NCBI GenBank assembly: GCA_050084515.1
Contig: CM114271.1
Span: 30,318,001 to 30,382,000, forward strand
Direction of reading: 5' to 3'
Length of the DNA stretch: 64,000 bases
From: Blasia pusilla
Taxonomy: Eukaryota
Shown: positions 13,479 to 64,000 of the stretch, in pieces
How positions within the stretch are numbered: the first letter of the stretch is position 1
Layout of the letters: each line of letters begins with the position of its first letter
Notes under the pieces: generated by a model
Database searches by the model: none
What the model was told of the DNA's origin: nothing
What the model saw: the letters and a program-made list of their open reading frames with translations, nothing else
Translations under genes and position numbers: made by a program

Positions 13479-14126
13479 GAGGTTTCCCAAACCCCGTTCT
13501 CATGTGAGTGCCATTAGTGGAGCTTCTCCTCTGCCTTCGAAGAGTTGGCTCTACTGACAGCGACGAAGAGAGTGGCTTGACAATCATCATCAGATATCAT
13601 TTCGCGTAGAAGAGTGCAGCGAACAAGGTGGTGCCCTGTTTACCTTGCCATGTTCCAAACTCCGAGAGTCATTTTACCATGCTTCTTGGACTCGTTTGTT
13701 AACTGTTTCAGACACCGATCTATGATTAGAGTATCGGGGGGGACTCGCAGGTCGAATTAGATAACCCCTTCCAGATTTGAACACAGATTTTGAGGTTTAG
13801 ATTGGGCTCCGAGTGACTTGGACACTGATGTGATTCGCGGTGAAGGATTTTCAGAGCATGGGTTGATGCATGTGAGGAATCTCGGGTGCTGATTTGTATG
13901 TGATTTGAGCTCTCTCGGGTTGGACGAAGGATTATTCATCTGTTTTTTTGTGGTGGGGTGAGGCTTAGTTATTTATGCGCAGGATTTAGGGTTTAGAGGG
14001 TTTTGAAATCTGAGTGCGTGCTGTGAACAAATTGATTCGTGAGTGACTCGGTCGGAAGGTGCTGTCGAGACAGAATACATGGACGTAGGACTTGAACACT
14101 AGTAGACGGAGGATACGCAGCTTCGA

Positions 14127-16106
14127 ATGCTCATCAAGGATCCGGCAAAGCTTCGATTCCTGCTAGGAGTTTCTGGTTTGAAGGCCAAGGAACTGTCCCA
14201 TTTCACGAGCAAGCTGCTGTATGATTGCATGTGTAGGTGTTTAAGAAGCTCATCTGGTCATCAGCTTCTCAAAGCCGGAGGTACTCCATACCCCAACATT
14301 GGCGGAGGCAGTAGCTTTGGCTGTCTTGATTTCTTCTTCCTGGGTTTATTTTCTTGCGTAAACGAGAGGGCCCATTTTCATAAAGTGCTAGGTATGGCTT
14401 CTCAAAACCCTTTGCCAACCGAGGACATCAGCTCCATGAGTTCTTCTCTGGCTGGGATTGCTCTTGTCCAATCACACGAGTTGAGCGGTGAGGATGGGCA
14501 AACTGAGATGGGCAAAGTGAATGTCGCCAAAGCAGAAAATCATAATTCGCCTGGTAAGCTCGAGAAAGGTGTTGGGGGAGGGCTAGATTTGTCAGTGAAA
14601 GACGTGCCGGGGAAAGTGGAGGTCGGAAAGATTGGACAGATCATGGGGGAGAGTGCTTGTGATGAGGGGAATGTATGCCATATTGAAACTCAGCGCGCAA
14701 CTGGAATATTAGAGCAGCATGTGGCGAGGTCAGAGTGTGAAAATTATGGAACGGAGAGGCAAATTGATCTTAGTGAGAGTGAGAGGTATCCAACGAAAGC
14801 AGAGGGTGGCAAAGTTGGCAAGACTGAAGGGCAAGATGCAGGAGAAATGGAGAAACAGAATGCACCAGAGCAACGGGGTAAACTGGAGGAGACGGTGGAA
14901 GGAAAAGCTGGTAAGCTGGATAGGTTAGATAATTACGAACAAGTGCCCAGGATAGGCACCGGAAAGCTTGAGAAGACTGATAAGCTGGAGAGAGACACTG
15001 TTGGTAAGCAGGACAAGGCAGAGATGGGTAAAGGAGCCAAGGTACTGGTGGAAAATAAAGGGGGTGAAGTAAAACCAGCGGAAAAGAAAGGAATTCCTTC
15101 CTCAAGAGAAACTGGCTATGAGCCTGTGAAGTGTTTGATTACACTTGCAGCAAAATCACCTCAAGAGGCAGAGTACATCGACAAATTGAGAGGAGAGTCT
15201 GAATTAAAGCTACCTGATGGAGCAGAGCTAGTACCTGCTGACGAGGTCACAGATCCAACTGTAAGAGAAGCGTTTGGTGTCGACTTGTTTCTGAAGAATC
15301 TTCATACATCCCAGTTTGGAAGGTTTGTTTTATATTCACCCTTAATTCCGTCTACTCATACCCTCCTGTCACAGAATTTCCACAAATTCCCTCAGGGGGC
15401 AATTTGTGTAGCTGGTGCCCAATTGCAGGGAAGAGGTCGGGCAGGAAATGTTTGGCAGTCCCCAAAGGGTTGTCTGATGTTCTCCTTCACCCTTAAAATG
15501 ACCAATGGACGTTTGGTACCCTTTCTTCAGTATGTGGCGTCTCTCGCTGTCATTGAAGGATTTGAAGAGAGCTGCAGGACCATGGGAGCTCCAGTTCCAG
15601 AAGTGAGAATCAAGTGGCCAAATGACCTATATGCCAATGGTGTCAAGATTGGGGGTGTGCTGTGTACTTCAACCTACAGTGCCAAAACGTTCAACATTGT
15701 GGTAGGAGTAGGGCTTAACGTTGGAAACCGAGAGCCCACAACCTGCCTGGATGCTCTGATTCAGGAGCTGGATATCCAGGCTCATGCGCTTCAACACGAA
15801 GAGCTACTTGCATCGATCATGGCCAAGTTTGAGTATATGAACAACATTGTCTGTAACCGAGGGTTTTCGCCTCTGGAGAATGCCTACTACAATAAATGGA
15901 TGCACAGTGGACAAACCGTTGTTCTGCAGGAGAATGAAGTCGGAAGTTTGAATGTTGTGTCAAATGTTCCTGTCACAATTCATGGGTTGACGGCCACAGG
16001 GCATTTGTTGGCTACAGATGAAAGTGGTGAGCAGTATGAACTTCATCCAGATGGCAACAGCTTTGACTTTCTCAAGGGCCTTGTTAGGAGAAAACTCTCA
16101 AGGTAG
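14127..16106 (+). CDS. HCS: Holocarboxylase synthetase / biotin-protein ligase, single exon; real start may be Met at 14394
   Basis: BPL motifs in one uninterrupted frame: STH, QLQGRGRAGNVWQSPKGCL, IKWPNDLY, KIGGVL, VGVGLNV, and plant-type C-terminus ELHPDGNSFDFLKGLVRRK. Confidence 0.93.
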   Translation: MLIKDPAKLRFLLGVSGLKAKELSHFTSKLLYDCMCRCLRSSSGHQLLKAGGTPYPNIGGGSSFGCLDFFFLGLFSCVNERAHFHKVLGMASQNPLPTEDISSMSSSLAGIALVQSHELSGEDGQTEMGKVNVAKAENHNSPGKLEKGVGGGLDLSVKDVPGKVEVGKIGQIMGESACDEGNVCHIETQRATGILEQHVARSECENYGTERQIDLSESERYPTKAEGGKVGKTEGQDAGEMEKQNAPEQRGKLEETVEGKAGKLDRLDNYEQVPRIGTGKLEKTDKLERDTVGKQDKAEMGKGAKVLVENKGGEVKPAEKKGIPSSRETGYEPVKCLITLAAKSPQEAEYIDKLRGESELKLPDGAELVPADEVTDPTVREAFGVDLFLKNLHTSQFGRFVLYSPLIPSTHTLLSQNFHKFPQGAICVAGAQLQGRGRAGNVWQSPKGCLMFSFTLKMTNGRLVPFLQYVASLAVIEGFEESCRTMGAPVPEVRIKWPNDLYANGVKIGGVLCTSTYSAKTFNIVVGVGLNVGNREPTTCLDALIQELDIQAHALQHEELLASIMAKFEYMNNIVCNRGFSPLENAYYNKWMHSGQTVVLQENEVGSLNVVSNVPVTIHGLTATGHLLATDESGEQYELHPDGNSFDFLKGLVRRKLSR

Positions 16107-18700: not shown

Positions 18701-21700
18701 TCATAGCTTCACAAAAATTGCCTGCTTAGAAAACGTAAAACACTGTTTCTTAGAGAAACAGTATCCACGTTAAAGAAGAAAGAGACAGAGGAGCATTCCA
18801 GGCTTACTTGACTAAAATCAATGTGTGTGTCCTCTTGTGTTGCCCAGTCTTTAGTCTTGCCTCCGAAGTAACAACACAGATTGAGACCGATTCGTGCTCC
18901 ATGCTTATGACCCACCCTCCTGGCAGTGTTTGGCGGACTACTCATGTAAGGTGAATAAGTTACCCTAGACACTGTTTCGAAATCAACAGATGCCTCTATC
19001 TGGAGTAAGGCACCATTACTAACAGTCTGAAAGTCAAGAGTGGAAGGGGCATACAGTCCATTACTGGTTTCTTCACTGCTCAGATTCCCGTCAGAGGTCT
19101 TGAGTTCTTGTTCCTGAGGAGCTTGATCTCTCACAGAGACGGCTATCTGCATGGCATGCCACTGGCCACCCACGAAGTAAAATGGTCTTGACATACTTGG
19201 AAGTTTCCTCGTTGAAGTGTTTGCGTGCTCTCCATTCTCTGCAAGTGCCTGACCAATGAGAATTGAGGAGACCTCTCCTCTCCCAGCTCGACGCCAGCCG
19301 AAAGTGGTCTGTACCAGATCATTCACCCACAGTCCCGGAAGGGCACCCCCTTTTACCCACTGGAAAGAGCAAGGAAATCGAACCATGTAGCGCAGTAATA
19401 CCTCCTTTACACCCCTGACCAACAAAAGCCGAACGATTCTGGATATCATTTTGTGACAAAGGTTGTGAAGAGAGAACACTGAATATTTTTTAACTGTCTC
19501 ACACATCACAGAGAAGCAACAACAGGTAGACAATACCTCATGGGTAGTATCGAACGAGCGGCAACTCCCCCAGTTTTGATTCCAGCCAAGCGAGATGCTT
19601 GAGGACTCCAGGAACCCGCTGACATCGATACTCGCAGTGAATAGGCTGCATCTTGAGAAATCGTACCGGAATTTTTTCTTTCTTTTGATTCTGTCTTTAC
19701 CACGGAGCAGTTGGAAAGACTATCTGGATGGCACTTCAGTTGCCAATGTGAAGTATCCCACCTTAGTTCTTCCATTCTTTCATATCCTCTCAAATCAGGT
19801 GAATCCTTGGAGGCTGATTCAGGGCTAGGACTATGAAGAGTGCTCATTCTCTTGCTATCTGCACCAAAAACCTTTGAATAAACATAGAAACCAAAGTTGT
19901 AACAACCAATTCCTTGATCTTTTGCTTTCTCCATTATCAGAAAGTGGTTATGTGTAGCGTCATCTTCACTTAGTTGATACTTCACATTCGAGATGTCTTC
20001 TCGTTGAGATCTCTTGTCAGTCCCAAGAACTTGGACTGCTGGCACTTCCTCTTGACTAAATGTGCTTGCGGGCTCCTGTGGAGCTTCCAGAGGTGCCTTT
20101 TCTTCATCTAAAAGGGGAACGATTTCTCCTTGCCAAGCAAGCTGCAGCCCCTCAACATTGGGTTTATTGTGTCGTCCTTCTAAAGTTTCTAGATTAATGT
20201 ACCTCTCATGGTGCCTAGTTATTCTTACTAGATCCGATTCGCCTGTCCTGAGTCGCAGTTCTCGCTTAACCCTCTGATACAGAGCTTCGATTCGGATGTG
20301 CTGTACAAAACAATTCATGGCAATCAATTGTATGTATGTAAATGTACAACTCTTGCAAAATACAGCAGACGCAGCAAAGTTGCAGAATACGATTATATCC
20401 TCCCTTTCCCGAAGGCCCGGAAAAAAACTTATGATCACTTCACAACCTAAACACCGGGTAGAGAATTAAACCAGTCGTCCGATATTCGTCACAAATTTTA
20501 CTAGTCACTAAACGATGAATGAAAAATTACGTTTTCTTCCTGAGTCGCATAGCTTGATATGAAACAATACCTGAAGATCGTCAGCAGCTGGACCAAATGT
20601 CTGCATCCAATCTGGAGACCTTGCGTGAGGGATATCTAGAGCATAGGCGTTTACGAGCACCTTGAACCCAAAACCACTCAATTGGAGATGGTAAAAGAAA
20701 GATATTTTGTCTTTACCATACCCTACAAATCGTTGATCAAATCTTGGTATGAGTTCACGTGAGCAGATTATGTAAGGCTCAAATCCCTCTTCGTAGTTTA
20801 TAGCATACGACTGGCAGATGTCACAGCAGATATCACTCTGGGTGTCAAGATCTGGAGAGAAATCTCTCCACCAGTCGAAATCTGTGGGTCCATGTCCAGG
20901 ACGGTAATGCTTCACGTGAAAACCATATAGCCAACCATCTGTCAAGCCCTTCCTCATATCATGAACACCCATCTCGACGAACATCTCTGCCCGAGAGATT
21001 ACAGATGCCTCTTGACGGAGACTCTCGAGACATCTCTCCTCGGTCTGCAATACGGCTTGCTCGGGACCTGGGTATGAGCTTTCCACATCTGTGTTCCAGA
21101 AGGAGGAGCCAAAGTCAATCCTTACAACGAATCCATTCTTCTGCTTTTGCAAAGCTCTATGAAAAACAGAGTAGATCATATTACCTTCAGATCGTGCCGG
21201 AGAGGTACATCGAGAAGCATTGAACTTTTCCCATGAGTACTGGAAACTAGGGACCACCAAGACAGTTTTCTCCTTCACTGCCGTTCTCCAGAGACATTTG
21301 TATTGTTTTTCATCCGTCAAATACTCTGTTGCCAGGACCACAAACATGACACAACTGCTTTACAACGTCTCTCGAGCATTCTAACAAGGAACTAAAACCT
21401 CGTGTACGAGCTTTTCCACTCTATACCAAATGTAGATTGGCCTGCGCCACCAATTGACCCGACTGACGAGTGCGTACCTTGATTATGAATTATCTTGATA
21501 AGGACTATCTTAAAAACCTTCAGAACTGCTTTAAGTACAGTCCAGAACCCACTTTAGCCGTGGGTCTTACCGAGACTACATAGTGACAGCTACAAAACGA
21601 TTTCAATTGGCCAGTTTCCACCATCAATAGAGTTGGCTTATTTGAGAAGACAAGCAAGGCTAGTGAGAAACTGGTGCGCACCATGAAGTGAAGGAGCAGG

Positions 21701-30600: not shown

Positions 30601-30772
30601 AATTTTGGCCGCACACGCAACCTCTATGGAGAATTGCATCTCTACCTTGCTTCGTTGGAGCCCAAGTTGGGGACTAGGAGCTCATTCACAAGAGTCCGCC
30701 CAAACTAGGTCCCCAAATTGAGCCTATTCAAATAGGTTGGTTAGATCTAGCTTTCCACATCGATGTTGCAAC

Positions 30773-30911
30773 TGTCGTGCGCATACATATTGCTACACAA
30801 CATACATCGCTGGTTACATCTACACCACACAACACCGATCTTCCCCACACATGGGTCGATCCACACATGTACAAAAATCATCTCATACATATACATGGAG
30901 ATCACACAACC
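30773..30911. repeat. Element 1 repeat A (139 bp, terminal copy)
   Basis: Matches 31394-31532 with about 7 substitutions; absent from the other end of the element. Confidence 0.93.
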
Positions 30912-31391
30912 AAAAATAAAGAGTAGTAAAAATGGCACACCCGGCCGAAAACTCCATTCCTCAATCTACATTGGCATATCGAGCCTCGTCCACCTTATGC
31001 TATCAAGGAATCCAGACGCTAGCACCCTAGTCCTATCTCACACACATACAAGGGAGGTGCTCCAACGGCCCAACATGAGAAAGATGGCTTAGGAAAGCCA
31101 TCTTCCTCTCTTATATAGAGTTGGGAAGAGCCAAAAGGCTCTTCCCCTAAAAATAACCCTCTTCTTAGTAACCTGCGCACATAGGTTACGAGGGGCGAGT
31201 GACCTGGTCAACAAGTCACCCGGCTATGAAAGACCTCAACATGAAAGTTATTAGAAACGACGTTCCTGACACAATGGACCTATTCTCAACCTCATCCGAC
31301 CCCGTGGGACAAAGTTACACTCAAGATAGTCCACTGGCTCCTACGCCCTATCCACGATAGATCTCGGCCTATCGGCTACTCAGATGTGATA
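30912..31391. repeat. Element 1 repeat B (480 bp, 3' copy)
   Basis: Matches 39299-39778 with about 15 substitutions counted by eye, mostly transitions. Confidence 0.95.
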
Positions 31392-31393
31392 GC

Positions 31394-31532
31394 TGTCGTA
31401 CGCATACATATCGCTACACAACATACATCGGTGGTCATATCTACACCACACAACACCGATCTTCCCCACACATGGGTCGATCCACACACGTACAAAAATC
31501 AACTCATACATATACATGGAGATCACACAACC
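31394..31532. repeat. Element 1 repeat A' (139 bp, internal copy)
   Basis: Separated from B by the dinucleotide GC (31392-31393); abuts the G-rich tract on the internal side. Confidence 0.93.
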
Positions 31533-31542
31533 GCCCCCCTAG
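31533..31542 (-). promoter_or_regulatory. Putative polypurine tract, upstream of A' rather than of B
   Basis: Minus strand TAGGGGGGC; equivalent TAGGGGGCG at 41336-41344 and TAAGGGGGCA at 57389-57398 in family 2. Confidence 0.65.
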
Positions 31543-31607
31543 CTGGCAGTTGGATCCCCCCAACTCCAGAAAGAAAATATCACATCTCTCTGATATCACC
31601 TACTACC

Positions 31608-32870
31608 CTATACACATCTCGGACACATCCATCGTCCCGTGGGAACCACATCAACATGGGAGTCAGACATGACATATGCCACCCTCGAGAACAACCATCA
31701 CATACCAACATGGTGGCTGCATCCCTCGCAGATCCGCACATCAGACACCGCAAGCCTACAGGTACCACTGCCAAGCTCGGATCCACCGTCCCATCTATGT
31801 TCGGAAGAGGACATGACGCACAATTGCGCACATGATCCTTCCAAACCATACCATCCCGTCCCTCCAACATGAGGACTCCGGTCGGTAATACCTCGCGCAC
31901 ACGTAGGATTGTGCGCCCTGCAGTGACATCTAGCGTCGTGGGTGCCGCCTGCTCTAAATACACGTAATCTCCAGGTTGAAACCTCCTAATCCCTAGACGA
32001 TAACCTCCTCCACGAATATTCGTGTACCTCAATGTATCTCTATGCTCAGCAATAGCTAAGTTCTCAAAGGCCATAAGCATAACTCTACGAAAAACCTCCG
32101 CCCTCTGAGAACATGCTTGTACCCACACATCTGGATCATCAAGATCTAACACCTCTGCCATGTCACGTCGAATCGCTGCAGGTAAATCTGGCTCTCTCTC
32201 AAAGAGCAAAAAGTACTGTGAAAATGACGCCAAGGATGCCTACCGACTAAAGCAAAAACCCATAGCCAACCATGGCAACTGTAGGTCCCACTCCCTCAAC
32301 TGTCCCCGCTGCATGCCATACTTGCGCAATCCTCTCTTCACCGTCTGTACCACTCTCTCCGCCAACCCATCCGCCTCAGGATGATCTCTGGACGTGGTGC
32401 AGTGTTCTATCAGCGCCTGATCACACAAGGCCTAAAACTCTCCCCTGAACTCGGTACCGTGGTTAGTCAACACCTCCGCCAGTGCATCAAAGTGACTAAG
32501 CACATGATCTAGAAACGCATAAGCTGTTCCCTTGCTCGCCTTGCCTGGTAGTGCCACCAACTCTATCCACTTGGAGAAATGCTCCACCATGACCAACACG
32601 TACATATGATGACGCCGCGTCAATGGCAAAGGTCTCGCAAAGTCTAAACTCCACCGATAACCTAAATCCATAACTGGAAAAGGATGTAACTGCGGAGTGG
32701 GAGCATTGAAGGATGCTCGCACTCTGTCACATACCATACATCCGCCACAAATGCTGTACCCGGTATGCATGCGCGCCACCAATCTTGAACACGAGTAAGT
32801 CGTAAGTCCGCTTTACTCCGAAATGTCCCAACTCCTAATGGGCATGTCGTACTACACGTGCTCGCTAGGA
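31608..32870 (-). pseudogene. Element 1 integrase (HHCC + DDE core) with C-terminal PHD finger
   Basis: HAH-x-LGHFG...C-x2-C; RWSLDFARPLP...VEHFSKW...TNHGTEF; HPEADGLAERVVQTVK; CLMC...LVCDGCSRGWHMSCL...(frameshift)WMCPRC. Contains stops. Confidence 0.9.
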
Positions 32871-33309
32871 AGGATGAGGTACCACTCGTATCCTACCATC
32901 TCCCCATACCCGCAAAATATGAGTTCCCTCCCACCTGAACCTCTTGGCTCTCTGTAGGATCCGATCCCGCTCCCTAGCACTCACTGTACTTGCAATGACG
33001 CCAGTGCATAAGAACTCCACAACCTCCACGTCGTCATGGATATCACGTCCACCTGTCGCCTCCTCACTAACCTCCAGATCCAAAGACTCATCATCCAACC
33101 CCACCACTAGAGTCATCACCTGTGGCTGACCTGCTATAGTCAACCAACAAAGATAGGCAGATGCATGCCAACCGGGCACCATCTCCTCATCACTTTCTCC
33201 GTGCCATCGAGCTCTTGTGTCGTCTCTCTGACTCGAACATGGGTCACAACTCAACCAATCCGCATCCTGGTTCAGCCGACCTGGCCTATGAACCACCTCA
33301 AACTCATAC

Positions 33310-33965
33310 TCCTATAGTAATAGAGCCCACCTTGCAAGCTTTCCCGTAAGCTTGTCGGACTCCATCAACCACCTCAACGGCTGATGATCAGTGATAAGTG
33401 TGAAAGGGTTGCCGAATAAAAAGCACCTGAAATGTGCCACTGCCCACACTGCAGCCAAGCACTCTCCCTTGTAGGAGGTGTACTTCGCCTCTGCAATGTT
33501 GTTCGATCGGCTCGCGTAAGCCACAACGAACTCCCTCTCCTCGTCATCCCTCTGAGTAAGCACTGCTCCTAGACCCAACATGCTCCAATCCGTATGTAAC
33601 TGGAATGGGCGACCCCTAATCGGTCTCTGTTAAATGGGTGAGGATGTCAACATGTCCTTGAGCTCCTGAAATGCTCGCTCCTCATCATCTCCTCACAACC
33701 AAACCTGATCAAGTCTCGTCAACAAGGTCAAAGACTTTGCGATCGCACTAACACCCTTGACATACCATCGATAGAAGTTCGCCAGTCCAAGAAATGCTCG
33801 GACTCGACTCACATATGTAGGGCGTGGAATCTGCGCAATAGCCTCTACCTTCGTCTACTAAACGCCTAACCCACTCGGGTATATGGTGTGTCCCAAGTAC
33901 TCAATCTGCTCCTGAAAGAATCTGCACTTGCCTGGATGTAACTTCAGTCCATGTTACTGCAATCC
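33310..33965 (-). pseudogene. Element 1 RT C-terminal part and RNase H; RT core deleted
   Basis: HGLKLHPGKC..YLGH, FLGLANFY, FQLHTDWS...LGAVLTQ...VVAYASR...TDHQPL. About 740 bp present in element 2 (43795-44540, including YIDD) is missing at ~33965. Confidence 0.88.
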
Positions 33966-34108
33966 ATGTAACACTAGGGTTGCTATGTAGCAACCCTAGC
34001 CACCTCCGCAACAGGCACTCCACTTTGACCTCCTACACCATGCTCCACATCCGAAAAATGAACATGTGCTACTCTAGCCGCCTTCGCACTCTCTGCTCGA
34101 ATGACGTC

Positions 34109-35860
34109 CTAGGAAGTCCATGGGTGCCTATCTCTCCTCGTCTCGCCCTCAGCCAATGCCTGTACAGAACCTTTAGGCAATTGTCCAACTCGTGGACGTG
34201 ACGACATAGATGACACTCGCATCCGTCTCTGCTCAGCCATACCTAGGTTGACTATCCATGTGAGACAGTTGAGGTCCATCGCCTGCTCCAACACGTGTCT
34301 CTGGGATGCCTCAATCATCCCTGGCACCGCCGTAGTACCGGTAGCGAACCCCATGGCGCGCTCGCGCTCATCAGCTGTAGGCTCCTCCAATGCTCCGGTC
34401 ACCTCATCCCAAATCATGCCTGGCCCTCCCTGACGAAAGGCATGGGATGCTGGGAAGCTCACCAACGTAGGTAAGGCTGCCCTCAACTCCCCCATCCTAT
34501 TGGTCATGGCCAACGGTGGTCTATCATCCCGTGTCACCACTAGAGATCGACGCCCTGAGCCCAAAATAGCATCCACTGTGAGATGTGGTGCTCTCTGGAC
34601 TCCATCGTACGCTCGACTCGCACTGTGATGGTATCGGTTCGTCCACCACAGTCGTGGACGATGGGCACGTGATCCAACTCTCGCCGCATCTAATAACACA
34701 GCAGGTCCCAACCAGAACCTCACCTGATACACACTCGTCATCACACGTGCACGAGTGTCTCCCAACAATGGCACGTTCTCCAAGATGTACGTTGGAGAAC
34801 ATGTCTGACTCTCCTGCAAGTGTTGTACTACTCGCAGCATCTCCCAAAACATCCCTGACCTCGGATCCTGCAATCCAAATCCTTGGCCAGCTGATGAATG
34901 ACACTGACATGGCCATCCAGCAATCACCAAATGAATGGTGCCAACTCTATGCAGATCTTGCGCCCCCACCAAAGAGATGTCGGCGGGTAGTGTATGCTGA
35001 TATCCCCATACTGCACATACCGACAACAACTCAGGATACCTCTGTACCAATCTCGCCACGTGACGTAATGATACTCGCCGTGCGGTCTGATCTCTCTCAC
35101 CATAAAGGTATTGATGCACCCGTATGCCCGCCTGCAATACTGCAGCCAATCCGGTGCTAATCCTTCCGAAGATATCTAACACCCTAACACCCTCCTCTGG
35201 GCACTGCCACACAACAGGTGTGGTATCCAGTGGGGTCAACGTCTCCACGCCAAGAGCCTGATCGCCACGTGACTCACGCTGCTCCGGGATAAAAGCATGA
35301 CTCCACGCGTGCCTCACGAGGTTGTTGGCACTCCTCTGTAGCTCTGGAGTTATACCCCACAATGGTGAAGAGTTCTCGCCAACATGGGAAGAGACACCCG
35401 CCATGGCCTGACTCTCTGCGGGACTATCTGCTACTAAGACATCCTCCACATGTGCGTTATCCTCCAACAACTCTCCTGGCCAGCTAACACTACCTGTGAA
35501 AGCCGCCAACGTGGTCACAGACTCGCCTCGTGATCGACCACCTCGTCCCGCAAACTGCACGGGTAAGTGACTCATCTGGTCGTCACCTGACCGCCATCTT
35601 GGCCGATAAGCAACGGTCTCCTCCCATAAGTCAAGGATGAATCCTAGGGGATATAACAATGTACTCCCCACCAACATATCGTACGACTCAACTGGTGTCG
35701 TAATTGCACGTGTGCGCACCATAGCACTATCTGTCTCATACTCTGGCTGGACTCTAACAACTATCTCCTCTCGAGTCATATATTGCGTGGGTGACATGCC
35801 CCCAATCGAGGTCTGTATCTGAAAGGGACAAGGCTCAATGTCGGCCTTTCGTAACCCCAA
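34109..35860 (-). CDS. Pol segment: aspartic protease C-terminal half plus Dnmt3-like C5 cytosine DNA methyltransferase (~34250-35190)
   Basis: 583-aa open frame with C5-MTase motifs in linear order: I VLDIFGRISTG, II YLYGE, IV AGWPCQ, VI ILENV, VIII RAHRPRLWWTN, IX ERERAMGF, X VLEQAM. Confidence 0.9.
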   Translation of the reverse strand: MGLRKADIEPCPFQIQTSIGGMSPTQYMTREEIVVRVQPEYETDSAMVRTRAITTPVESYDMLVGSTLLYPLGFILDLWEETVAYRPRWRSGDDQMSHLPVQFAGRGGRSRGESVTTLAAFTGSVSWPGELLEDNAHVEDVLVADSPAESQAMAGVSSHVGENSSPLWGITPELQRSANNLVRHAWSHAFIPEQRESRGDQALGVETLTPLDTTPVVWQCPEEGVRVLDIFGRISTGLAAVLQAGIRVHQYLYGERDQTARRVSLRHVARLVQRYPELLSVCAVWGYQHTLPADISLVGAQDLHRVGTIHLVIAGWPCQCHSSAGQGFGLQDPRSGMFWEMLRVVQHLQESQTCSPTYILENVPLLGDTRARVMTSVYQVRFWLGPAVLLDAARVGSRAHRPRLWWTNRYHHSASRAYDGVQRAPHLTVDAILGSGRRSLVVTRDDRPPLAMTNRMGELRAALPTLVSFPASHAFRQGGPGMIWDEVTGALEEPTADERERAMGFATGTTAVPGMIEASQRHVLEQAMDLNCLTWIVNLGMAEQRRMRVSSMSSRPRVGQLPKGSVQALAEGETRRDRHPWTS

Positions 35861-35863
35861 CGC

Positions 35864-38100
35864 TTAACACGCCGCCTTCCCTAACATCAAGGGTTGCGCT
35901 CCCAAATCAAGTAGGACGCGCTGCAGATGGTATACTGTCCCCGTCGGACTAACCAAGCAAAATACTCCACCTCGGTTATCTAGTAACACTACTCCAAGTG
36001 TCACCACTGCTCGCTCTATGGCCGGTCGAGTTGGCATATCTACCAACTTCGCCGCCGCCGCATGCCATGACTCGGTGGGGAACGTCCCGAGCACCCGCTC
36101 TGAGGGCAATTCCACCACCTCCTCAACTACCTCTGAACAAGAAGCAGTCATCTCTCCACGCTCACACAACGTGGCGACCAACCGGAACAGCTCAGCTGGT
36201 CCAACTCCCAACGTCGCCAACTCTATGGCGGAAAATAGTGGAGTTTGACTCACTCTGGCGGCCACCTCCAACACTATGGTCGACAGTGACTCCACTCGAG
36301 CCGGCATAGGAGTTGTCACTCCAACTCCTCATGAGGTTAACGTAGGTACTTGAGCTGTAGGCACCAATGGTCATCGAGGCACCATCGATGGTGTGTGTAG
36401 TGCCTCCGACAATGTGAATGACTATGGAACCCTGGCCTGCCGCCCGTCGGTCCCCTTTGGTGGGTCAATCTCAACTCCACCTCTCAATGGCTCGGTGCCT
36501 CTCGCAGCATCCCGAGTCACCACTATAGCTGCCTCAACCCAGGCTGCACTACACATAAATCCCAAACTGGCAAGATCCTCACCCGGGTCAGGATAAGAGG
36601 TAGAATCCGGAGTCACACTAGCTGCTCGCAGCTCCGTGCCTTCCCTAAGCTGCATCATCATCATGGCAGCAATCCTTTGCTCCAACTGATTGATGTGTGA
36701 GAGAAGTGTCGGCTCTGGTGCTCCTGCTCCTCTGGCTGGTGGTGGTCCTCTACCATCACGTCCAGGAAGACTCCCCGACCTCCTCCGGGACAACCGCCCC
36801 CAGGCCCTCGGCCTACCTCTGGACGTGCCCCTCGGCGAAGGTCAAAACATTTATCCCTAGTGTGACCATATCTATGGGAATAGTCACACTGGTGCTATGG
36901 TGGGGCTATCCTCTGTGGCTCCTGAGCAATGGGAGGCACTAGTGGTCTTTCCCATGCTGTGGGTAGTCTCTTTGCCTATGGGCCCCTCCACACGTCCAAC
37001 AAGACCACATCGGTCCTTGTTGGGCAACATATGTAGGTACGGGTTGTTGTCTCATAGGCTCACGGTACCCGCCCTGCTCTCTAGGCACACTCGCCCACTC
37101 CCGTGGTACTGGTGCTCGTTGTGGCACCTGTGGGGTCACCATCGCTCGTGGACCCGTCGACTCTCGAGAAAATCCAGCGGTCACTACCGGCTCCTCACTC
37201 ATGTTGAGCTCAATACGCTCAGACAACTTAAAGACCACCTTCAATGTGGGCTTCGCTGTGTGAATCAGCACCGCATCTCGGACTCTCTTCCGTAGTTCTC
37301 GGTCCAGAACCCCCTACCAATACTGGACTGACTGCGCCTCAGTCACTCCAAACGTAGCAATGATCAGCCTCCTCATGCGTGTGAATGCCTCTCTCGGACT
37401 CTCACCCGATCGTCGCTCAAAATCATGTAGACTCTTTAGCTTGTCGGTGCGTACGCCCTGGTAGCTCTTCCCCAACTGTCGGAAGAACTCCACTGTGGGG
37501 CTGAAGCTGGGTGGTCCTCTACCATCAGAGGTCTCTGCCACATCGCCCATCTCATTGCCCTCCTCTCCATCTAATCTCCGGGCTAATGGTGTGGATCTCT
37601 CTCCTCTCACAATCCCATCATATGCCTCGCGACCACTAGTGGACACATACCCTGGAGCCCAATACATCCTCTAGGCATCGATCTCTACTGAATATAGTGA
37701 TCGAAACTCCATATAGTCATCCATCGGAGGACCCTCCAAGTGCTGGAACGATCCCTTCCATGCCATGAAATGGTTGAATCGTGTCGGGGTCCGTATCTCT
37801 TGGAAATCACACCACGTGTCGAACTCCTGGATAAAATCATCTAAGTCGATGGTGCCCACTGCACCCGAGAAACGACGCATGCCCCGATGGCCCATGTCGT
37901 CCATCTCCTGCCAAGTACTACTGTCTCTGTCTGCGATCTCGTCACCAGACCTAATGTCTACTAATGAAGATCCAGCCACGTATGGATGTCGAGGTAGCTC
38001 CTCACTGGTAACCCCTCGGTATCTCAATCCACTCCGTGTCACACCACTACTACTGCTCGCACTACCCGGTTCTTCCGAACCCTGGAAGAATGCCGTGATG
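35864..38100 (-). pseudogene. Element 1 gag and protease active-site region, broken by stops
   Basis: RFSGAVGTIDLDDFIQEF (gag N-terminal-like), FERRSGESPREAFTRMR (MHR-like), CWTCGGAH zinc-knuckle remnant, RVLLDLGAQP protease-like motif. Confidence 0.8.
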
Positions 38101-39284
38101 ACAAACCCTGTCTCACCCGCTCAAGCACTCAGACTCATCGAGAGTCTCCCACACGCCTCACTAGCTCACCTATGCTAATATCAATCCCGTGATGACATAC
38201 CTGGCCTCACGCACACTCAACACTCGGGCTCACTATGAGCCTCCCAACTGATTCACCTAACGTAGCGACACTCTCTCGGGTCATACACGCGACCCCTACT
38301 CGGCAACCGCCGTATATCCACCAACATGCTACACATGAAAAGAATCTACACTCGTCACCATCACTGCACCCACCTAGCACCAGCTACTACCCGATACCCA
38401 ACACTATCAATCACACACGACAAGTGCGGGAAAAGGGACTCGAATGGATAACCTGATCACGCCCTCCAACCTGCTGCACCATCAACATGCACTCCTCCAC
38501 GTGATATGACAACCTCCGCAACAAAACACTCTCCTCGACCAACACGTCGATCCTCCCATCAACAGATGCAGACAACCTGTCGGCATCATGCGCACTGCCC
38601 CTCCATCGTCAACTCTCGCAACGCCCTATCGCGCCCCAAAAACATCATGTCGCGCAAACCTCTCCGTCCATCCCCACACGCGGCATGTAACCTGACTCAC
38701 CCTGGTCGGCTCCCACCTACCACGTACGCCCTGTCCGACCACGTGAACATGAGCTCGACCACATTTGGACTCTCAACGACGTCTCCATCCAACCATGTTC
38801 GGTCCTACCACGTTTCCCATGCGCAACCACGTCCAAAGGGGAAGAAAAAGAGTAGTAAATGTGAGAGGGGGGGCCTGGCCCGCACCCCTATGGGCCTCCC
38901 CAACTTTTGGGGTGAGAAATAAATGCGCTTGGGGGCGCGCCATCGCCCCCCGTCTGCTCGTCGCCGTCCGCCCGTCCGCGCCCGCCGACCTAAACGCCCA
39001 TCAGCGCCTCCGACGGCTGCAAGCCCTAACTCTCCTTCTTGCTAAATCTCGACATTCCCGCTACTAGACGACGCTATACCTCCCGTCACAACCTGCGCTA
39101 CACCCTGCTCCTGTCCCCCATCAATCCGCACCAACAAAATCTGAGAAAAACGGACAGCGCTTCCGCCCACGGCCTTCCAAACAGAAAAATGACAAATACG
39201 ACACCAACCAACGTCTCCACGGGCTCCCGACCAAGGCAACTCGCTTGCCTACCTGCAAACAACGAATTCCCACCAACCCCCTGA

Positions 39285-39298
39285 CATCTTTCTCATGT
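39285..39298 (-). promoter_or_regulatory. Primer-binding-site position, complementary to the element's own predicted transcript 5' end
   Basis: Minus strand ACATGAGAAAGATG directly follows repeat B; its exact 14-nt complement is on the same strand at 39473-39460. No tRNA-type TGG start. Confidence 0.7.
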
Positions 39299-39778
39299 AA
39301 AAATAAAGAGTAGTAAAAACGGCACACCCGGCCTAAAACTCCACTCCTCAATCTACATTGGCATATCGAACCTCGTCCACCTTATGCTATCAAGGAATTC
39401 AGACGCTAGCACCCTAGTCCTATCTCACACACATACAAGGGAGGTGCTCCAACGGCCCAACATGAGAAAGATGGCTTAGGAAAGCCATCTTCCTCTCTTA
39501 TATAGGGTTAGGAAGAGCCAAAAGGCTCTTCCCCTAAAAATAACCCTCTCCTTAGTAACCTGCGCACACAGGTTACCAGGGGCAAGTGACCTGGTCAACA
39601 AGTCACCCGGCTATGAAAGACCTCAACATGAAAGTTATCAGAAACGACGTTCCTGACACAATGGACCTATTCTCAACCTCATCCGAACCCGTGGGACAAA
39701 GTTACACTCAAGATAGTCCACTGGCTCCTACACCCTATCCACGATAGATCTCGGCCTATCGGCTACTCAGATGTGACA
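39299..39778. repeat. Element 1 repeat B (480 bp, 5' terminal copy)
   Basis: Direct repeat of 30912-31391; ends TGTGACA followed by the TSD. Confidence 0.95.
39497..39504 (-). promoter_or_regulatory. Putative TATA box of element 1
   Basis: TATATAAG on the coding strand, about 31-32 nt upstream of a CA initiator-like site at 39473/39472; conserved in the 3' B copy. Confidence 0.6.
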
Positions 39779-40959
39779 CAACCCTCATAACAAACAAACG
39801 CCAAGCACAACATTAGAATTCTAATGGGCTCATTCTAGTATGGTTTACATGTTGAAGAGGTCTCTTGGAAGAGGCGCAAGAGACAAAAAATATGAGACAC
39901 GAATAAGGTTGAGCATTTCATTCTTCTATAGTCACGACTAGGAAACCTAAACGAAACATGAACCAAGACTTGAGAGAAGTGGAGTCTAGGAAGAGAAGTT
40001 GCCAAAGAGGTGAGAACCCGATTTGGAATGTGACTAGCATTTAGGGTTTCAGCTATATTTTGGACCATAACTTTTAGTCCCTAGACCCATTTGGGAAAAT
40101 TAAGGTGTCGTTGGAAAGCTTATGCAAATCCAATTCCAACGCATCAAAAATCTTAGAAAAAAAATAAGCAGAGGATGAGAAACTTCTTTACTTCCTTTCA
40201 GTTGGGACCGTTGGGCGTGCAAACGCCGTTTTAGGTGCCTGGACTATCAAGAAGACTATCCTAAGTCTCAGAAGTCCTGCCCATATTGGGAAGCTAGGAA
40301 CAAGGAAGATTGGGCTTGACATATGGCCGAGTTGAGAACTGAGAGAGTTGGAAGATTGATTGGCCCAAACCAAATCTAACGTGAGTGTAAGTAGCCTTGT
40401 GAGCAGCGAGAGCATGTCCTACTAAACATACGCTTACACAACACTAAAGATTTAAATTCAAGAGGAGTAGGCATACAAAAATCGAACTCATTCACATTCA
40501 GAGGAGTGCACATAAGTCATAAGAGTCACCGAGCAGGCTTTTATTGTTGCTCAGGAATCGTATCTAATTAAAGCGGGAGCCTTAGGGGATTAGGCGTTCT
40601 GATAGGTGCAACAGAGGGTTTAATTTACAGTTTACACTTCCAAATGGAAGCAAATGGAGGGGCAAGGCTTGGGTGATGGCCATTTTACAGATTTTTGGCG
40701 GCCCGGTAAATCCAAAGGGTTGCGCCTACCAGGGCGGTCGGCGTACCGCGGTTTAGGGTCTAATGGGCGGAGGGCATACCAGAGTGTTGCATCCCGATTT
40801 GATCGCAACGAAGTGGGGTGGGCATGGGGTTCACATGTCATAGTGCCCCCGGTGCCGCATCACCATTTGGTCGCACGACAAAGTTTGGTATTATGGTAGT
40901 GGGTGAATCTCAAATGTCGCAATTTGGCGCCTTTTCCAAATTGCCAATTGCTACTTCGG

Positions 40960-43900
40960 GGAGAGCTTCCGGAACACGAAATTGCTCCGAAATTGAGCTC
41001 TACATGTCGAGACTTTGTTGAGCGTTTGCTTAGTGTGAGTAATAGTCCCCACCATATTATGAGAATGCACACAAAGTGGATCACAGATCAGATGAGAGAT
41101 AAACTCAGTGGATCCTAAACTCAAGCAAGGGATGCTATGCTCAAACATCAAGACATCCTAAACATAAGAAATGCCACGAGGAGGCGATAAAGTGGGTATG
41201 AAGGGACTGTCATGCGCATACACATCCCTATACAACATACATCGTTGTCACCAAACACACACACAACCACGCATGATCCCATGCTAACTCATGGCATCCA
41301 AACGACAAGACAAGAAGTACCAAAATATCTCCAATCGCCCCCTAGATGGTGGTTAGGTCCCTCTAACTCTAGATAGCCATCTAACCCTACCTACCATGAC
41401 ATACATCTCTCGGACGATGAGAGCAAGAAGGCCGCGTGCTCATGTGGCCCCCTCGTTAGTCGCCTTCTTATCATCCATGTCACAAACACAAGTCAGAATG
41501 TAGAACTACCTACTTTATGTACATCCGGGACACATCCATCGTCCCTGAGGAACCCTAGTGAGAGGTGGCCTCAAGCCTGCCATATGCCATCCTCTCGAAC
41601 ATCCATCACAAACTAGCATAGTGGCTGCACCATGGGCAGAACCACACAACATACATCGCAAGCCTGCCCGAACTACTGTATCTTCAATGTTCGGAAGGTG
41701 ACACGGCGCACAGTTACGCACATGGTCCTTCCAAACCATATCATCGCGTCCCTCCAATAAGAGAATACTTGATGGAAAAACCTCACACACTCTCAAGATG
41801 GTGCGCCCTATAGTCACATCCAACATCGTGGATGCCGTCTGTTGTAAGTAGACATAGTCTCCCTAATGAAACCTCCGGATAGTAGGTCGATAACCACCTC
41901 CCCGAATAGTTGCATACCTCAACGTATCTCGATGTTGCGCAATCGCCAAGTTCTCAAACGCCATGGACATCACTCTCCGAAACAACTCAGCCCTCTGAGA
42001 ACATGCTTGCATCCATACATTAGGGTTATCAAGGTTCAACATCTCACCAACATCTCGACGAATGGCGTAAATCTGGCTCCCGGCCATAAAGAAACAAGAA
42101 CGGTGAGAAAGGCGCTAAGGATGCATGCTTGCTGAATCTGTATCCCATCGCCAACCACGATAACTAGAGGTCCCAATCTCCTAGGTGACCTCTCTGCAAG
42201 GCATACTTGCGTAATCCTCTCTTCACCGTCTGTACAACCCGCTCTCCTAGTCCATCCGCCTCAGGATGATCTCGCGTAGTAGTGCGGTGGTCATTAGTGC
42301 CTGATCACACAAGGCCTTAAACTCCCTGCAGAATGTTGTACCCTGGTCTGTCAACACCTTAGATGGTGCGCCGTAATGACTCAGCACTCGATCTAGGAAG
42401 GCATACGTTACTCCCTCACTTGCGTTTTCAGGCAATGCAACCAACTCTATCCACTTCGAGAAGTGCTCGATCATCACCAACACATAACGACTATGGCACT
42501 TTGTCAAAGGCAAAGGTCCTGAAAAATCCAAACTCCATCTATAACCTAAACCCATGATCGGAAGTGGATGCAACAGTGGAGTCGAAGCATTGAATGATGC
42601 TTGAACTCGATCATATACCATGCATCTAGCAACAAACTGTTGAACATCAATCTGCATGCCTCGCCACCAATACTGAATCTGGAGCAAGTTGTACATCCGC
42701 TTCATTCCAAAATGACCCAACTCCTCGTGGGCATGACGCACCAAACGTGCTCTCTGCAAAGGATGAGGCACTACATGCACTCTACCATCCTCCCACACTT
42801 GCAACATTTGTGTCCCTTCCCACCAGAACTGTCTGGCTCGTTGTAGGATCCGATCTCACTCTCTAGCATCCTCTATGCTCGTGATGCTGCCAATACGCAG
42901 GTACTCCAAGACCACTCCATCCTCGTAAATGTCTGGGCCATCTGTTGTCTCCTCACTGGCCTCTGGATCTAAGGACTCTCCATCAGACCTCGCCATCAAA
43001 GTCTTAAAAATCTGGCTCTCCATAGCCAACAAGCCCAAATAGGTTGAGGCATGCCATCCTGGCATCAACTCCTCATCACTCTCACCATGCCTACAAGCTC
43101 CAGTCGCATCTTGCTGACTCGAGCATGGGTTTTGGGACTCCTGCAACAAAAGAGCCCACCTTGCAAGCTTCCTTGTAAGCTTGTCGGACTCCATCAACCA
43201 CTTAAGTGGATGATGATCAGTAATGATGCTCAAGGGATTGCCCAAAAGATAACATCTGAAATGTGCGACAGCTCACACTACAGCCAATCACTCACCCTCA
43301 TACAAGCTATAGTTTGCCTCTGCAGCATTGTTCGAGCGACTAGCGTAAGCCACCACGAACTCTATACCATCATCGTCATGTTGGGTGAGCACGGCTCCAA
43401 GCCCCAACATGCTCCAATCGATATGCAACTGGAAAGGACGCCCCCTGATCGGTCTCCTCAATATGGGCGCGGACATCAGTCTGTCCTTGAGCATCTAAAA
43501 TGCTCTCTCTTGCTCATCCCGCTAGTGCCATTCCTGATCCACCTTGGTCAGCAAGGTTAGCGGCTTCGCAATCGAACTGAAACCCTTTACGTATCGTCCA
43601 TAGAAGTTTGCCAATCCCATGAATGCACGAACTCGACTCACATCTGTAGGGCGTGGAATGCGTGAAATAGCCTCTACCTTCGTCTGTTGCACACCAAGGC
43701 CCCCTAGGTATATCGTATGACCCAAGAACTCAATCTGGTCGTAGAAGAACTTGCACTTGCCTGGATGTAGCTTCAGCCCATGTAACTGCAATCGTCAAAA
43801 CATCTCCTCTAGATGTCGCTCATGCTCCTCAACCATGGCGCTAAAGACTACGATGTCATCAATATAACACCTAGCAAAATCCACACCTGCCAAGATCCTA

Positions 43901-46900
43901 TCCATGACCCTCTGAAACTTAGCCGGGGAGTTCTTTAACCCGAATGGTAAGAACTGCCATTGGTACAAAGAATCCTTCCCGTGAGGATCGATGCCCCAAA
44001 ATGCCGTCTTCTACCTGTCCTCCAATCTTATAGGCAGCTGATGGTATCCGGCTCGTAAATCCAATGAATTGAAGACCTTTGCATGCCCAATCGCATCAAA
44101 GATTTCCTCCAGGGTGGGCATGGCATACCTATTGGACTTCGTCTGCCGATAGATAGGTCCGTAATCTCCACACATCCGCCTATGCGTCCACTTGCCATGC
44201 ACATCCTTCTTGGCGGGCATGAGAGAGGTAGATGCATACTCTCCATGCGACATCTCCACTAGTCCTGCACCAACCAAGTCTTGGCTCCTACTCTGAATCT
44301 GAGCCCTCTCCATGTCACTGTACTTGTAGGATCGTCGAAAGATCGGTGTGTCACTCGACAACTCAATGCGGATCCCTGGACCCTTTAGCGTATCCAAATC
44401 ATGCATACTAAATGCAAAACAACTCCTATAACTCTTAAGGAACTACTGTATCTAACGCCGCTCTCCTCTTGTCAACTTAGGGCCCATATCTGCCTCCCAA
44501 GTCTCCATCGTGAGTACGGTAGGACTCTTCGGCGCGGATGTCGGTGGTTGTTATGGTGCAACCCCGTCTCAGACAATAGAACTCTCATCTCCACGTGCAG
44601 TACCCAGAACCACGCTCGATGTTGTGGCTATCATCTCCTGGCGTACCTGCAAAACATCCCAAGAAGTCCAAGGGTGTCTCTCCCGATCACCCCTGGTGTG
44701 TCGATCTCCTCGGGTCTCGCCCCCAGCCACTGCCTCAACCGTCTTGGTAGGCATGGGGCTCACCAACGCAACAGCTGTGATCTATTGCATCCTCAAACGA
44801 AGCTGCTCAGCTACTCCTAAACTGGAAATCCATGTCAAGCACTTCAGATCTATCGCCCTGATCCAAGACATGACGTCATGATGCCTCTAATAGTGACGGT
44901 ATTGTCGTCACTCCTATGGGTAATCCCATTGCTCGCTCTCGCTCATCGGCGTTGGGCTCCACCAACCTCTGTACTTGGTCATCCCAAACCAAGCCAGGTC
45001 CGGCCTCCTTGAATGCTTAGGAAGCGGGAAAACTCACCAATGTCGATCATATACTCAAAATGGTACTTACCTAAAATAGTAAGTTCCTCAATATGGCTCC
45101 AAATAAGCCAAAACAAAGGGGATACCTGCTCTCTCAGGTTTCTCGGGGCCTCAGTAGGTCATCCTCAACCTCTTGAGTCTGTCCTCCACTACTACTCCCG
45201 AAGGCGCTCTACTCGATCTCACCAATCTATCCTAAAAGATGTAACAGGACAGATGATGCAACCGCGGTCCACATGTGAGTTGAGAGGCATCCTGAACATG
45301 TCATACTTTACAAACCATTTGACCATGTCAATTGAGATCCCTTCACCCTTGATTTTCCACCCCATGGATGCTCCAAAATCTGGTAAGATTTGGAGACGGA
45401 GGTGCCATTAGTATGGATGCGCACATGGAACCAACACACACATACGAGATAACTCAATTGTTTTTGAATGGTTATGTATAGGGATGGTTGTAGGAAGGGT
45501 TAATTTCAATCAGCAAAGGTCAAGTATACCATGTTTTAGAATTTTACTTCGGAAAGTTCTCTACTGAACAGATTCAGAACCCTTCTAATGGAGAGTTCTA
45601 GAACTGAACTTCATTTCATGACACTAACTCTGCATCCTCAGTAACCTAAGACATTGTGGACAATGTGATGTAAGGTCTAGTTTTTTATATTAATTCGGTC
45701 CTCTGTTCTCAAGATATTGCATGTGGAAACACTGATCCTCTATGCATTGTTGGTTTGTTTCACTCCAAATAGTACCAACTGTTCACCCTCCTAGGTTTTG
45801 ATTCCTTCCATAATGGATTACCTATGGTGTAGGCAATTCTACAACGGCATACGCATGCAAACCTTGTGGAAGTTCTCAGGAGCATCAAGGCTCGTGCGGA
45901 AGCCATGATTTGCATTAGTGGACAAGATATCCTGACACGGTGGAACCCTTCTTGCTTCATTGTCGACGATTCAAAGGAAGAGCAATCAGCCATAAGGGAA
46001 GTGTTTCCACAGGTTCCTACCCACTTGTGTATTTGGAACATGCGAAAAGCCTCGCTCAGGAAGCTCCATCAACGAGTTAGATGTCCCATTACCAAGGCAG
46101 ATATGAATCGAGACCTCGGTCAAATTATGTACACTCGATATCTTGGTATGTGTATTTCTCTGGAAATCTGAAGTTTATCCTCCTTGACATGTATTTGCAA
46201 CCTACAAATGAATGTGTGGAGCTAAGTAGACGTGTAACCTGTGCAGATCCTTAGCAAGTATCCATGGACTTCCTCCACAAGTATGTTGATTCTGAGCCGC
46301 ATTTTGTGAAATACTAAACTACAAACTGGCACCCAAAATTGGCCTCATGGGCGAAGGCGTTTAGAAGTAAAGCCACATCTCACCAAGATACCAATGCTGC
46401 AATCGAAAGGTGGCATGCCACCTTGAAGACACATCTCACTTCAAGCATGCCGACCAAGGGAACAAGGAAGATTATTTGGCTAGTTGAAATTTTGACCAAT
46501 GAAGTTGAGGATTTTTGCTGGTACATGGCACTCTTGAAGTCTGAAGGGAGGGTTAGGAACAAGGCAATCTATCGTGTGATGACTATGGCCATAAAGAATG
46601 CTAAAGAAATTCCTGATGCCCATGTTACGTTTGAAAATCACAATGGCGTAAAATATGTGAAGGTCTTGAGTAAATCCAAACGAAGATTTTGACACTCAAT
46701 CTCCAACTACAACTCAAAGATTGCTGCATACACATGCTGCATGCCCAAGAGGGCACCACATGCAAACACCAAGTAAGTGTCCATCTAATTTGGTGCTTAA
46801 ATTGTAACGCACAATTCCATCAACCTCGAATCTTGTGTAGGCGTTCATGCTTTTTTGAAATCAGTTTGGGGTATGGTGACAGGTGAAGTGATTCTTGCTA

Positions 46901-63659: not shown

Positions 63660-64000
63660 TGTTGTGCGTATATATATCGCTACACAACATACATCGTTGG
63701 TCACATCTATACCACACAACATCGATCTTCTCCCCACACGGGTAGATCCAGACATGTATAAAAATTAACTCATACATATACATGGAGATCACACAACAAA
63801 AATAAAGAGTAGTAAAAACGGCACACTCGGCCTAAAACTCCACTCCTCAATCTACATCGGCATATCGAGCCTCGTCCACCCTACGTTATCAAGGAATCCG
63901 GACGCTAGCACCCTAGTCCTATCTCACACACATACAAGAGAGGTCCTCCAACGGCCCAACATAAGAAAGATGCCTTAGGAAAGCCATCTTCCTCTCTTAT
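63660..64000 (-). mobile_element. Element 4: A+B terminus of a family-1 copy nested in the gag of element 3 (continues past the window)
   Basis: TGTTGTGCG start; A ~63660-63797 and B from ~63798 match 30773-31114. Confidence 0.9.

Follow-up and report, generated by a model that had tools for sequence, protein, structure and literature searches.

Insertion ends abutted inside the repeat of Ty3/gypsy-type retroelements in Blasia pusilla suggest integrase cleavage within the LTR

Introduction

LTR retrotransposons and retroviruses are defined by the integration of a linear cDNA through the tips of its two LTRs. Circular forms of the cDNA are regarded as dead ends, and split direct repeats are considered a hallmark of the tyrosine-recombinase (DIRS) elements. 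A 64,000-nt stretch of the Blasia pusilla genome (assembly GCA_050084515.1, contig CM114271.1, positions 30,318,001 to 30,382,000; hereafter the window) holds retroelements whose two insertion ends also meet in the interior of the repeat, and a preliminary description of this stretch proposed that the integrase cuts at that internal joint, inside the LTR of a circular cDNA. The locus thus raises the question of which DNA the integrase of these elements acts on, and of how the integrated copies could arise from it.

Layout of the element

The joint lies in element 1 (family 1), whose sense strand is the minus strand of the window. Its structural features, in window coordinates, are as follows:

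30773-39778, minus (sense) strand: element 1, a retroelement of about 9 kb that holds the joint
30769-30772: target-site duplication CAAC on the 3′ side (sense), directly outside the TG..CA end
30773-30911, minus: b2, the terminal copy of repeat b, 139 nt; the plus strand begins TGTCG, the sense strand ends ..CGACA
30905-30918, minus: a/b seam, putative join of two cDNA termini
30912-31391, minus: a2, the internal copy of repeat a, 480 nt; 97% identical by BLAST to 39299-39778
31073-31086, minus: putative RNA 5′ end and self-primer in a2
31110-31117, minus: TATA box in a2
31387-31398: joint of the b1 end, GC and the a2 start; plus strand TGATA-GC-TGTCG, a near-palindrome
31394-31532, minus: b1, the internal copy of repeat b; 95% identical by BLAST to b2 (30773-30911) over 139 nt
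31533-31541, minus: polypurine-like tract (PPT), sense TAGGGGGGC, immediately upstream of b1
39285-39298, minus: primer-binding site (PBS), 14 nt, directly 3′ of a1
39299-39778, minus: a1, the 5′ terminal copy of repeat a; sense start TGTCA
39779-39782: target-site duplication CAAC on the 5′ side (sense), directly outside a1

In the sense direction the order is a1-PBS-internal-PPT-b1-GC-a2-b2, with outer ends TG..CA and a 4-bp target duplication on each side. The composite is bounded as a whole by CAAC/TG...CA/CAAC, the duplications lying outside the whole and not outside its parts. The two copies of repeat a are 97% identical over 478 nt (BLAST), and BLAST of the repeat pieces recovers the 621-bp unit (b, a and 2 nt) that had been described earlier. 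The joint letters also read as first given, TGATA-GC-TGTCG at 31387-31398 and, in a second element, TGACA-AT-TGTCG at 57255-57266 (plus strand). A nested a-internal-b copy beside a solo unit was considered and rejected: the 2-nt joint is too short for a 4-bp duplication, and the duplications flank the composite.

Three further copies and a solo unit are found in the window:

10558-11200, sense plus: solo a/b unit of family 2, with TG..CA ends and the duplication AACG
41208-45246, minus: element 2 (family 2), of a-internal-b form, internally deleted and without a repeated part, with TG..CA ends and the duplication GGAC
56617-57388, minus: 3′ end of element 3 (family 2), with b2 at 56617-56744, a2 at 56745-57259, AT at 57260-57261 and b1 at 57262-57388, followed by the PPT
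63660-64000, minus: element 4 (family 1), with b2 at 63660-63797 and the start of a2, inserted into element 3

The 5′ part of element 3 is interrupted at 63660 and continues beyond the window. Family 2 has about 73-75% identity to family 1 in pol and the same 3′ structure, with the spacer AT. The 4-bp target duplications stand directly outside TG..CA in all three testable copies of the window (CAAC, GGAC, AACG). Stop codons are present in every copy examined. Host-like ORFs adjoin the elements; one frame of 666 aa carries a biotin/lipoate ligase domain, and others carry polysaccharide lyase 14 and Glyco_transf_49 domains:

14106-16106 (plus) and 18709-21359 (minus): host-like ORFs beside elements, from domain matches

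Relatives in metagenome loci

Eighty metagenome loci were fetched with an alignment of the DNA methyltransferase (DNMT) ORF of the element and its homologues (about 40-60% protein identity), and their repeats were analysed by self-comparison and by BLAST with the repeats. Loci that had been sampled twice (L038/L039, L069/L070, L011/L012) were counted once. The full layout a-internal-b-NN-a-b (NN being the 2-nt spacer), or its 3′ part, occurs in 6 of the 80 loci, which represent two further families with about 50% DNMT identity: L004, L028, L036, L057 and L058 form one family and L045 the other. Because the layout recurs in family 2 and in these six loci, it cannot be put down to a local rearrangement. 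Copies of the a-internal-b type are the most frequent, seen at 16 distinct locus 3′ ends against 6 for the full form, counts that come largely from short-read metagenome contigs prone to collapse such repeats. L055 terminates at b, and L050 is rearranged. When the identity to a reference a was used as a measure of age, a-internal-b and full-form copies gave overlapping values.

Neither b-NN nor a-b-NN precedes the 5′ a at any of 18 distinct locus 5′ ends, and element 1 is also without them. The mirror form a-b-NN-a-internal-b is found at none of the 18 locus 5′ ends and nowhere in the window, against 8 cases of the full form, and a copy bounded by two identical complete LTRs was seen neither at the 18 locus 5′ ends nor in element 1. 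Nine locus copies have both ends. Six of them carry perfect target duplications, in the full form (L057, L028) as well as in the a-internal-b form (L018, L037, L038, L051); two match at 3 of 4 nt (L017, L025), and one has no duplication (L070).

Proteins of the element

The following coding features were identified in element 1 by Pfam matches:

31580-32239, minus: C-terminal part of integrase with PHD finger (PF00628, E 1.6e-6)
32432-32812, minus: integrase catalytic core, rve (PF00665, E 8.7e-8)
33312-33629, minus: RNase H of Ty3/gypsy type (PF17917, E 6e-33)
34109-35863, minus: 584-aa ORF with a C5 cytosine DNA methyltransferase, upstream of the reverse transcriptase (RT) (PF00145, E 3.4e-9)

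The PHD finger, integrase core, gypsy-type RNase H and C5-DNMT of element 1 lie in broken ORFs. In the better-preserved relative L057, Pfam matches to DNMT, RT, RNase H, Integrase_H2C2, rve and PHD follow one another in this order. The domains RVT_1, RT_RNaseH, Integrase_H2C2 and rve thus stand in the sequence that is expected of a gypsy pol, with an extra DNA_methylase before RT and a PHD after rve, and the protein set as a whole is of the Ty3/gypsy kind (protease, C5-DNMT, RT, RNase H, an H2C2 and DDE integrase, PHD). Polyproteins of 1,710-2,861 aa that contain the complete set of domains also exist among the related proteins. A tyrosine recombinase was looked for in nine selected minus-strand ORFs of element 1 (90 aa or longer) and in the nine plus-strand ORFs of L057 that reach 120 aa; no Phage_integrase match was obtained, and rve is present.

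The C5-DNMT domain is situated within the gypsy pol, between the end of the protease and RT (34109-35863, minus, in the window; 10244-11647 in L057). Many related proteins, with 50-58% identity, occur in Marchantia polymorpha, Calypogeia fissa and Sphagnum, and the closest protein relatives of the element are found among liverworts (Calypogeia, Marchantia) and mosses (Sphagnum). The PHD finger is C-terminal on the integrase both in the window (31580-32239, minus) and in L057 (13892-15016), where it shares one ORF with rve. In many plant gypsy elements, a chromodomain occupies the C-terminal position of the integrase.

Priming sites and the reverse-transcribed LTR

A G-rich PPT abuts the internal b in four families, with a conserved motif ..CCAGCTAGGGGGG followed by 1-3 nt. 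At the other border, the PBS that follows a1 in family 1 is exactly complementary to a 14-nt stretch of a beginning 30 nt past TATATAAG. The PBS of the L057 family has 11 nt of unrelated sequence, and its complement is again located 30 nt past TATAAAG. The best PBS match falls at position 164-170 of a in 11 of 18 locus copies, 30 nt past TATAAA where this is intact; the remaining 7 have deletions in a or in the PBS site. The predicted RNA 5′ end pairs with the PBS in the MFE and centroid folds of both families, with z-scores of only -2.1 and -1.0. A tRNA-type PBS was rejected, as the sequence after a does not start with TGG and the nearest TGG-containing stretch is 26 nt off. These features favour a self-complementary PBS and Tf1-like self-priming, from a predicted RNA 5′ end, over a tRNA-type PBS.

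Since the PBS adjoins the end of a and the PPT the start of b, reverse transcription would produce an LTR of the form b-NN-a. This is the unit that the preliminary description had put forward as A′+NN+B, and the placement of PBS and PPT bears it out; a PPT before the internal a, which would have spoken for another unit, was sought and no purine tract was found there. Judged from sequence, the insertion (att) ends, ..CA of b and TG.. of a, are then located in the middle of this predicted LTR, head to head and 2 nt apart, and in the least decayed copies the abutted ends read as a CA-GC-TG palindrome. With the insertion ends inside the synthesised LTR, the substrate of the DDE integrase would have to be an internal palindrome.

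A second PBS-like copy is present just upstream of the predicted self-primer, so that the DNA can form a hairpin with the primer; it occurs in both families, in unrelated sequences:

31073-31117 and 39460-39505, minus: second PBS-like copy and hairpin in the window; about 156-179 of a in the L057 family

Joint and seam

Repeats a and b meet in two connections, the b/a joint inside the predicted LTR and the a/b seam between a2 and b2, and these behave differently. The joint spacer is exactly 2 nt in all eight cases. It reads GC in element 1, L004, L036 and L057, AT in element 3 and L028, AC in L058 and GT in L045. A spacer of variable length, which would have spoken against the joint as a functional site, was looked for and not found among the eight. 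The self-complementary dinucleotide described earlier stands in six of them; AC (L058) and GT (L045) depart from it, each by one transition from GC or AT. All variants can be reached from CAGCTG by C-to-T transitions on either strand. The length of the spacer is therefore fixed while its letters decay. The first TG of a2 is changed to TA in element 1 and L057.

The a/b seam, in which the PBS-defined end of a meets the PPT-defined start of b, is exact in four of seven cases (element 1, L036, L057, L058). In the other three it has indels: the seam of element 4 is 1 nt shorter than that of element 1, as had been noted before, L028 has gained 19 nt and L050 15 nt. The insert of L028 terminates in the 3 nt that precede b at the PPT, and the first 11 nt of the L050 insert equal the PBS, that is, the length of the primer. 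In a DNA run of the window's species, one contig has about 15 PBS-like nt between the end of a and b, and the 1-nt seam deletion accounts for 17,824 of 85,064 in summed Logan contig depth (about a fifth), a depth that is not taken as copy number. The contrast between an invariant joint and an indel-prone seam that had been predicted holds. The seam defects are of the kinds expected where two cDNA termini were joined; with indels in 3 of 7 seams and 0 of 8 joints, the numbers compared are small.

The spacer variants GC, AC, GT and AT and the change from TG to TA at the start of a2 are transitions at CAG/CTG sites (31392-31393, 57260-57261, L058, L045), and they would fit deamination of methylated CHG sites.

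Expression

RNA reads under the same species label map to element 1 at 90-95% identity and thus represent transcripts of related copies. Over the internal bins (31442-38977), the first mate is on the plus strand in nearly all reads; in the repeat bins it is on the minus strand in up to about a third. In most stranded libraries, a plus-strand first mate corresponds to minus-strand RNA, which is the sense RNA here. Reads cross the seam position at depths of 11 and 15. The clusters of read ends on element 1 comprise 5-7 molecules only, too few to place the start or the poly(A) site.

Proposed route of integration and its alternatives

The permuted layout, with insertion ends abutted inside the repeat, suggests that the integrase cuts within the repeat and not at the ends of the DNA copy. 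We consider it fairly probable that these are Ty3/gypsy-type elements, encoding a DDE integrase that bears a PHD finger and a C5-DNMT placed between protease and RT, and that their integrated form is a circular permutation of the reverse-transcribed DNA. Two components of this reading, the internal att palindrome and the joining of cDNA ends, are well supported by comparison of the copies; from these we infer the circle and its cleavage by integrase.

In the proposed route, integrase would nick 3′ of CA on both strands of the joint palindrome, yielding 3′-OH CA ends with 2-nt 5′ overhangs that would be inserted by a 4-bp staggered cut. Use of both LTR palindromes of a linear cDNA, or of the single palindrome of a 1-LTR circle, would produce the a-internal-b form. 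That form would lack the promoter half of a in its transcript and would be unable to replicate. The replication-competent form a-internal-b-NN-a-b would result when the blunt cDNA termini are joined, creating the a/b seam, and only one palindrome is opened. The termini might meet in a 2-LTR circle that is cut afterwards, or be end-joined at about the time of integration. Within the master copy as integrated, a2 but not a1 is followed by b2, an arrangement that may limit 3′-end formation to the right-hand copy.

The original interpretation stands in its architecture, in the b-NN-a LTR and in the contrast of seam and joint; its simple circle fares less well. A symmetric 2-LTR circle cut once should give the mirror form a-b-NN-a-internal-b as frequently as the full form, and the counts are 0 and 8. 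The force of this count is weakened because the mirror form contains a 337-nt repeat, harder to assemble from short reads than the 115-nt repeat of the full form. The excess of a-internal-b over the full form in the loci (16 to 6) is likewise contrary to the simple circle. The a-internal-b copies could derive from both palindromes of a linear cDNA, from a 1-LTR circle, from later b/b recombination, or from assembly collapse of the 455-bp b-NN-a-b loop.

The absence of the mirror form would be explained if the joint is used as proposed but the seam arises during reverse transcription, by an end-to-end template switch in which the plus strand leaves the end of a (or of the primer copy) and continues at the start of b in the other LTR, through a concatemer-like or sigma-shaped intermediate with left/right asymmetry. 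Such a switch would also account for the one seam that holds an exact, primer-length copy of the PBS and 4 nt. Ligation accounts for the same seams, however, and the 8-to-0 count on which the switch draws may be biased by short-read collapse of the two repeats of unequal length; we regard this version as rather unlikely. A departure of another kind would be replication like that of DIRS or PAT elements with an integrase in place of the tyrosine recombinase, the internal b-NN-a serving as a complementary region that templates both the restoration of the ends of a sub-genomic cDNA and their joining into a (single-stranded) circle; the seam would be inherited through RNA and not formed afresh in every cycle. 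The layout A1-internal-B1-A2-B2 is given as typical of DIRS-order elements, transcripts may include the seam, as the reads that pass over it indicate, and the seam variant that makes up about a fifth of the contig depth could mean inheritance. The PBS and PPT nevertheless stand exactly at the borders of a and b, in the fashion of LTR elements, and the seam inserts with PBS or PPT-end letters fit joined LTR-type cDNA ends rather than templated restoration. The TG..CA ends, 4-bp duplications and DDE integrase add to the case against it, DIRS elements being described without duplications in the available portion of a review (PMC8969392), and the chance that this explanation is correct appears small.

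It is very improbable that the copies are conventional LTR elements that were rearranged after insertion, by nested insertion next to a solo LTR or unequal recombination, or that were misassembled. Nested copies are dense in the window, element 4 within element 3 being an example, but the same arrangement and 2-nt joint recur in 8 copies of 4 families, in the window and in independent metagenome contigs; the duplications flank the whole composite, and the 18 locus 5′ ends include no conventional copy. The layout has moreover been reported independently for a Gypsy-DNMT3 element of Klebsormidium, as far as the accessible text of that report goes (PMC5890265). Cleavage within the LTR is the reading retained here. 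In its widest form, it would mean that a streptophyte-wide Ty3/gypsy lineage moved its att sites to the middle of the LTR, that a restriction-like cut at CA-NN-TG became obligatory, and that only end-joined cDNA gives a competent provirus; we hold this extension tentatively, its chances falling a little short of even.

Relation to known systems

Several features of the elements have separate counterparts elsewhere. In the Tf1/sushi-type Ty3/gypsy elements, the PBS of the LTR element is complementary to the start of its own transcript and not to a tRNA, and the LTRs are conventional, with a chromodomain integrase. In the window elements the PBS is likewise complementary to the element's own sequence, at the predicted start of its transcript; they differ in the permuted LTR and the PHD integrase. 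Abutted ends with a short spacer are the active substrate of the DDE enzyme in the IS3 and IS30 families. These are bacterial DNA transposons, and their junction is made by the transposase on donor DNA and not by reverse transcription. The likeness thus lies in an abutted-end junction for a DDE enzyme, the difference in its origin from a bacterial transposase.

Among retroviruses, the integrases of PFV (PMC1180852) and HIV-1 (PMC1905944) cleave the palindromic 2-LTR junction in vitro to give 3′-processed ends, according to the parts of these reports available. The proposed palindrome cut resembles this restriction-like cleavage, and its chemistry thus has precedent. In retroviruses the ends must first be ligated for the palindrome to exist, and the route is accessory or disputed. 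In the present elements every LTR contains the palindrome from the outset, and integration would have to pass through it.

The closest resemblance in layout is to the DIRS order (PAT-like, Ngaro, TOC1), which has the arrangement A1-internal-B1-A2-B2, an internal B1-A2 that equals the joined termini, and a postulated circular intermediate. Those elements differ from the window elements in having a tyrosine recombinase and no target duplications, as against a DDE integrase, TG..CA ends, 4-bp duplications and a PBS and PPT at the borders. Split direct repeats are treated in reviews as a DIRS trait tied to the tyrosine recombinase and to the lack of duplications, to judge from the portion available (PMC8969392), and TOC1 is called a non-autonomous DIRS element (PMC9940879). 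De Mendoza et al. 2018 (PMC5890265) described KnitGypsy-Dnmt3 of Klebsormidium nitens, which has Gypsy domains and, by its figure legend, repeats arranged as in DIRS. From the accessible part of that paper, the combination of Gypsy domains and DIRS-like repeats is thus already in print, and the layout of the window elements is not new but a variant of this published combination. KnitGypsy-Dnmt3 also resembles them in having the DNMT inside pol, in a comparison made with its published description only. The case concerns a charophyte and not bryophytes, and the accessible text gives no joint sequence, duplication, PBS/PPT placement, mechanism or bryophyte copies (PMC5890265).

No published mechanism for this layout was found in the literature searched, nor any report that places the att sites of a DDE-integrase retroelement inside the LTR. 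Titles and abstracts on split direct repeats and Gypsy mentioned no Gypsy element with such repeats, and literature on Marchantia and DIRS retrotransposons, on gypsy cytosine methyltransferases in Marchantia, and on integrase at palindromic circle junctions of LTR retrotransposons yielded nothing relevant. Programs that find LTRs or classify transposable elements will overlook or misassign this family in bryophytes and charophytes if they expect two identical LTRs or take split repeats to mean DIRS. A tractable plant with many related proteins, such as Marchantia, makes it possible to test on a natural element whether integration can be supplied by junction palindromes or circles, which is an old question. 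If the reading is true, these elements would offer a naturally occurring case of integration that normally proceeds through a circle junction, and they would link LTR retrotransposons mechanistically to DIRS elements and to junction transposition of the IS3/IS30 type.

Derivatives and conserved repeat ends

At 4923-5820 of the rearranged locus L050, a leader fragment is joined to a copy of a that begins in the vicinity of the self-primer; 11 nt of PBS, 4 nt, b and the flank come next. An inverted piece of a is located close by, and the arrangement resembles an aberrant cDNA product. DNA contigs of the window's species (run X1) link 31716 and 36130 straight to about 39285-39288. These junctions indicate internally deleted derivatives of family 1, which are probably non-autonomous.

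The last 40 nt of b, beside the CA end, are 85-92% conserved between families whose remaining LTR no longer aligns. They are located at:

30773-30812, 31394-31433, 41208-41247, 56617-56656, 57262-57301 and 63660-63699: conserved last 40 nt of b in the window; also at the b ends of many loci

This segment is a candidate for an integrase-binding signal or for a signal of 3′-end formation.
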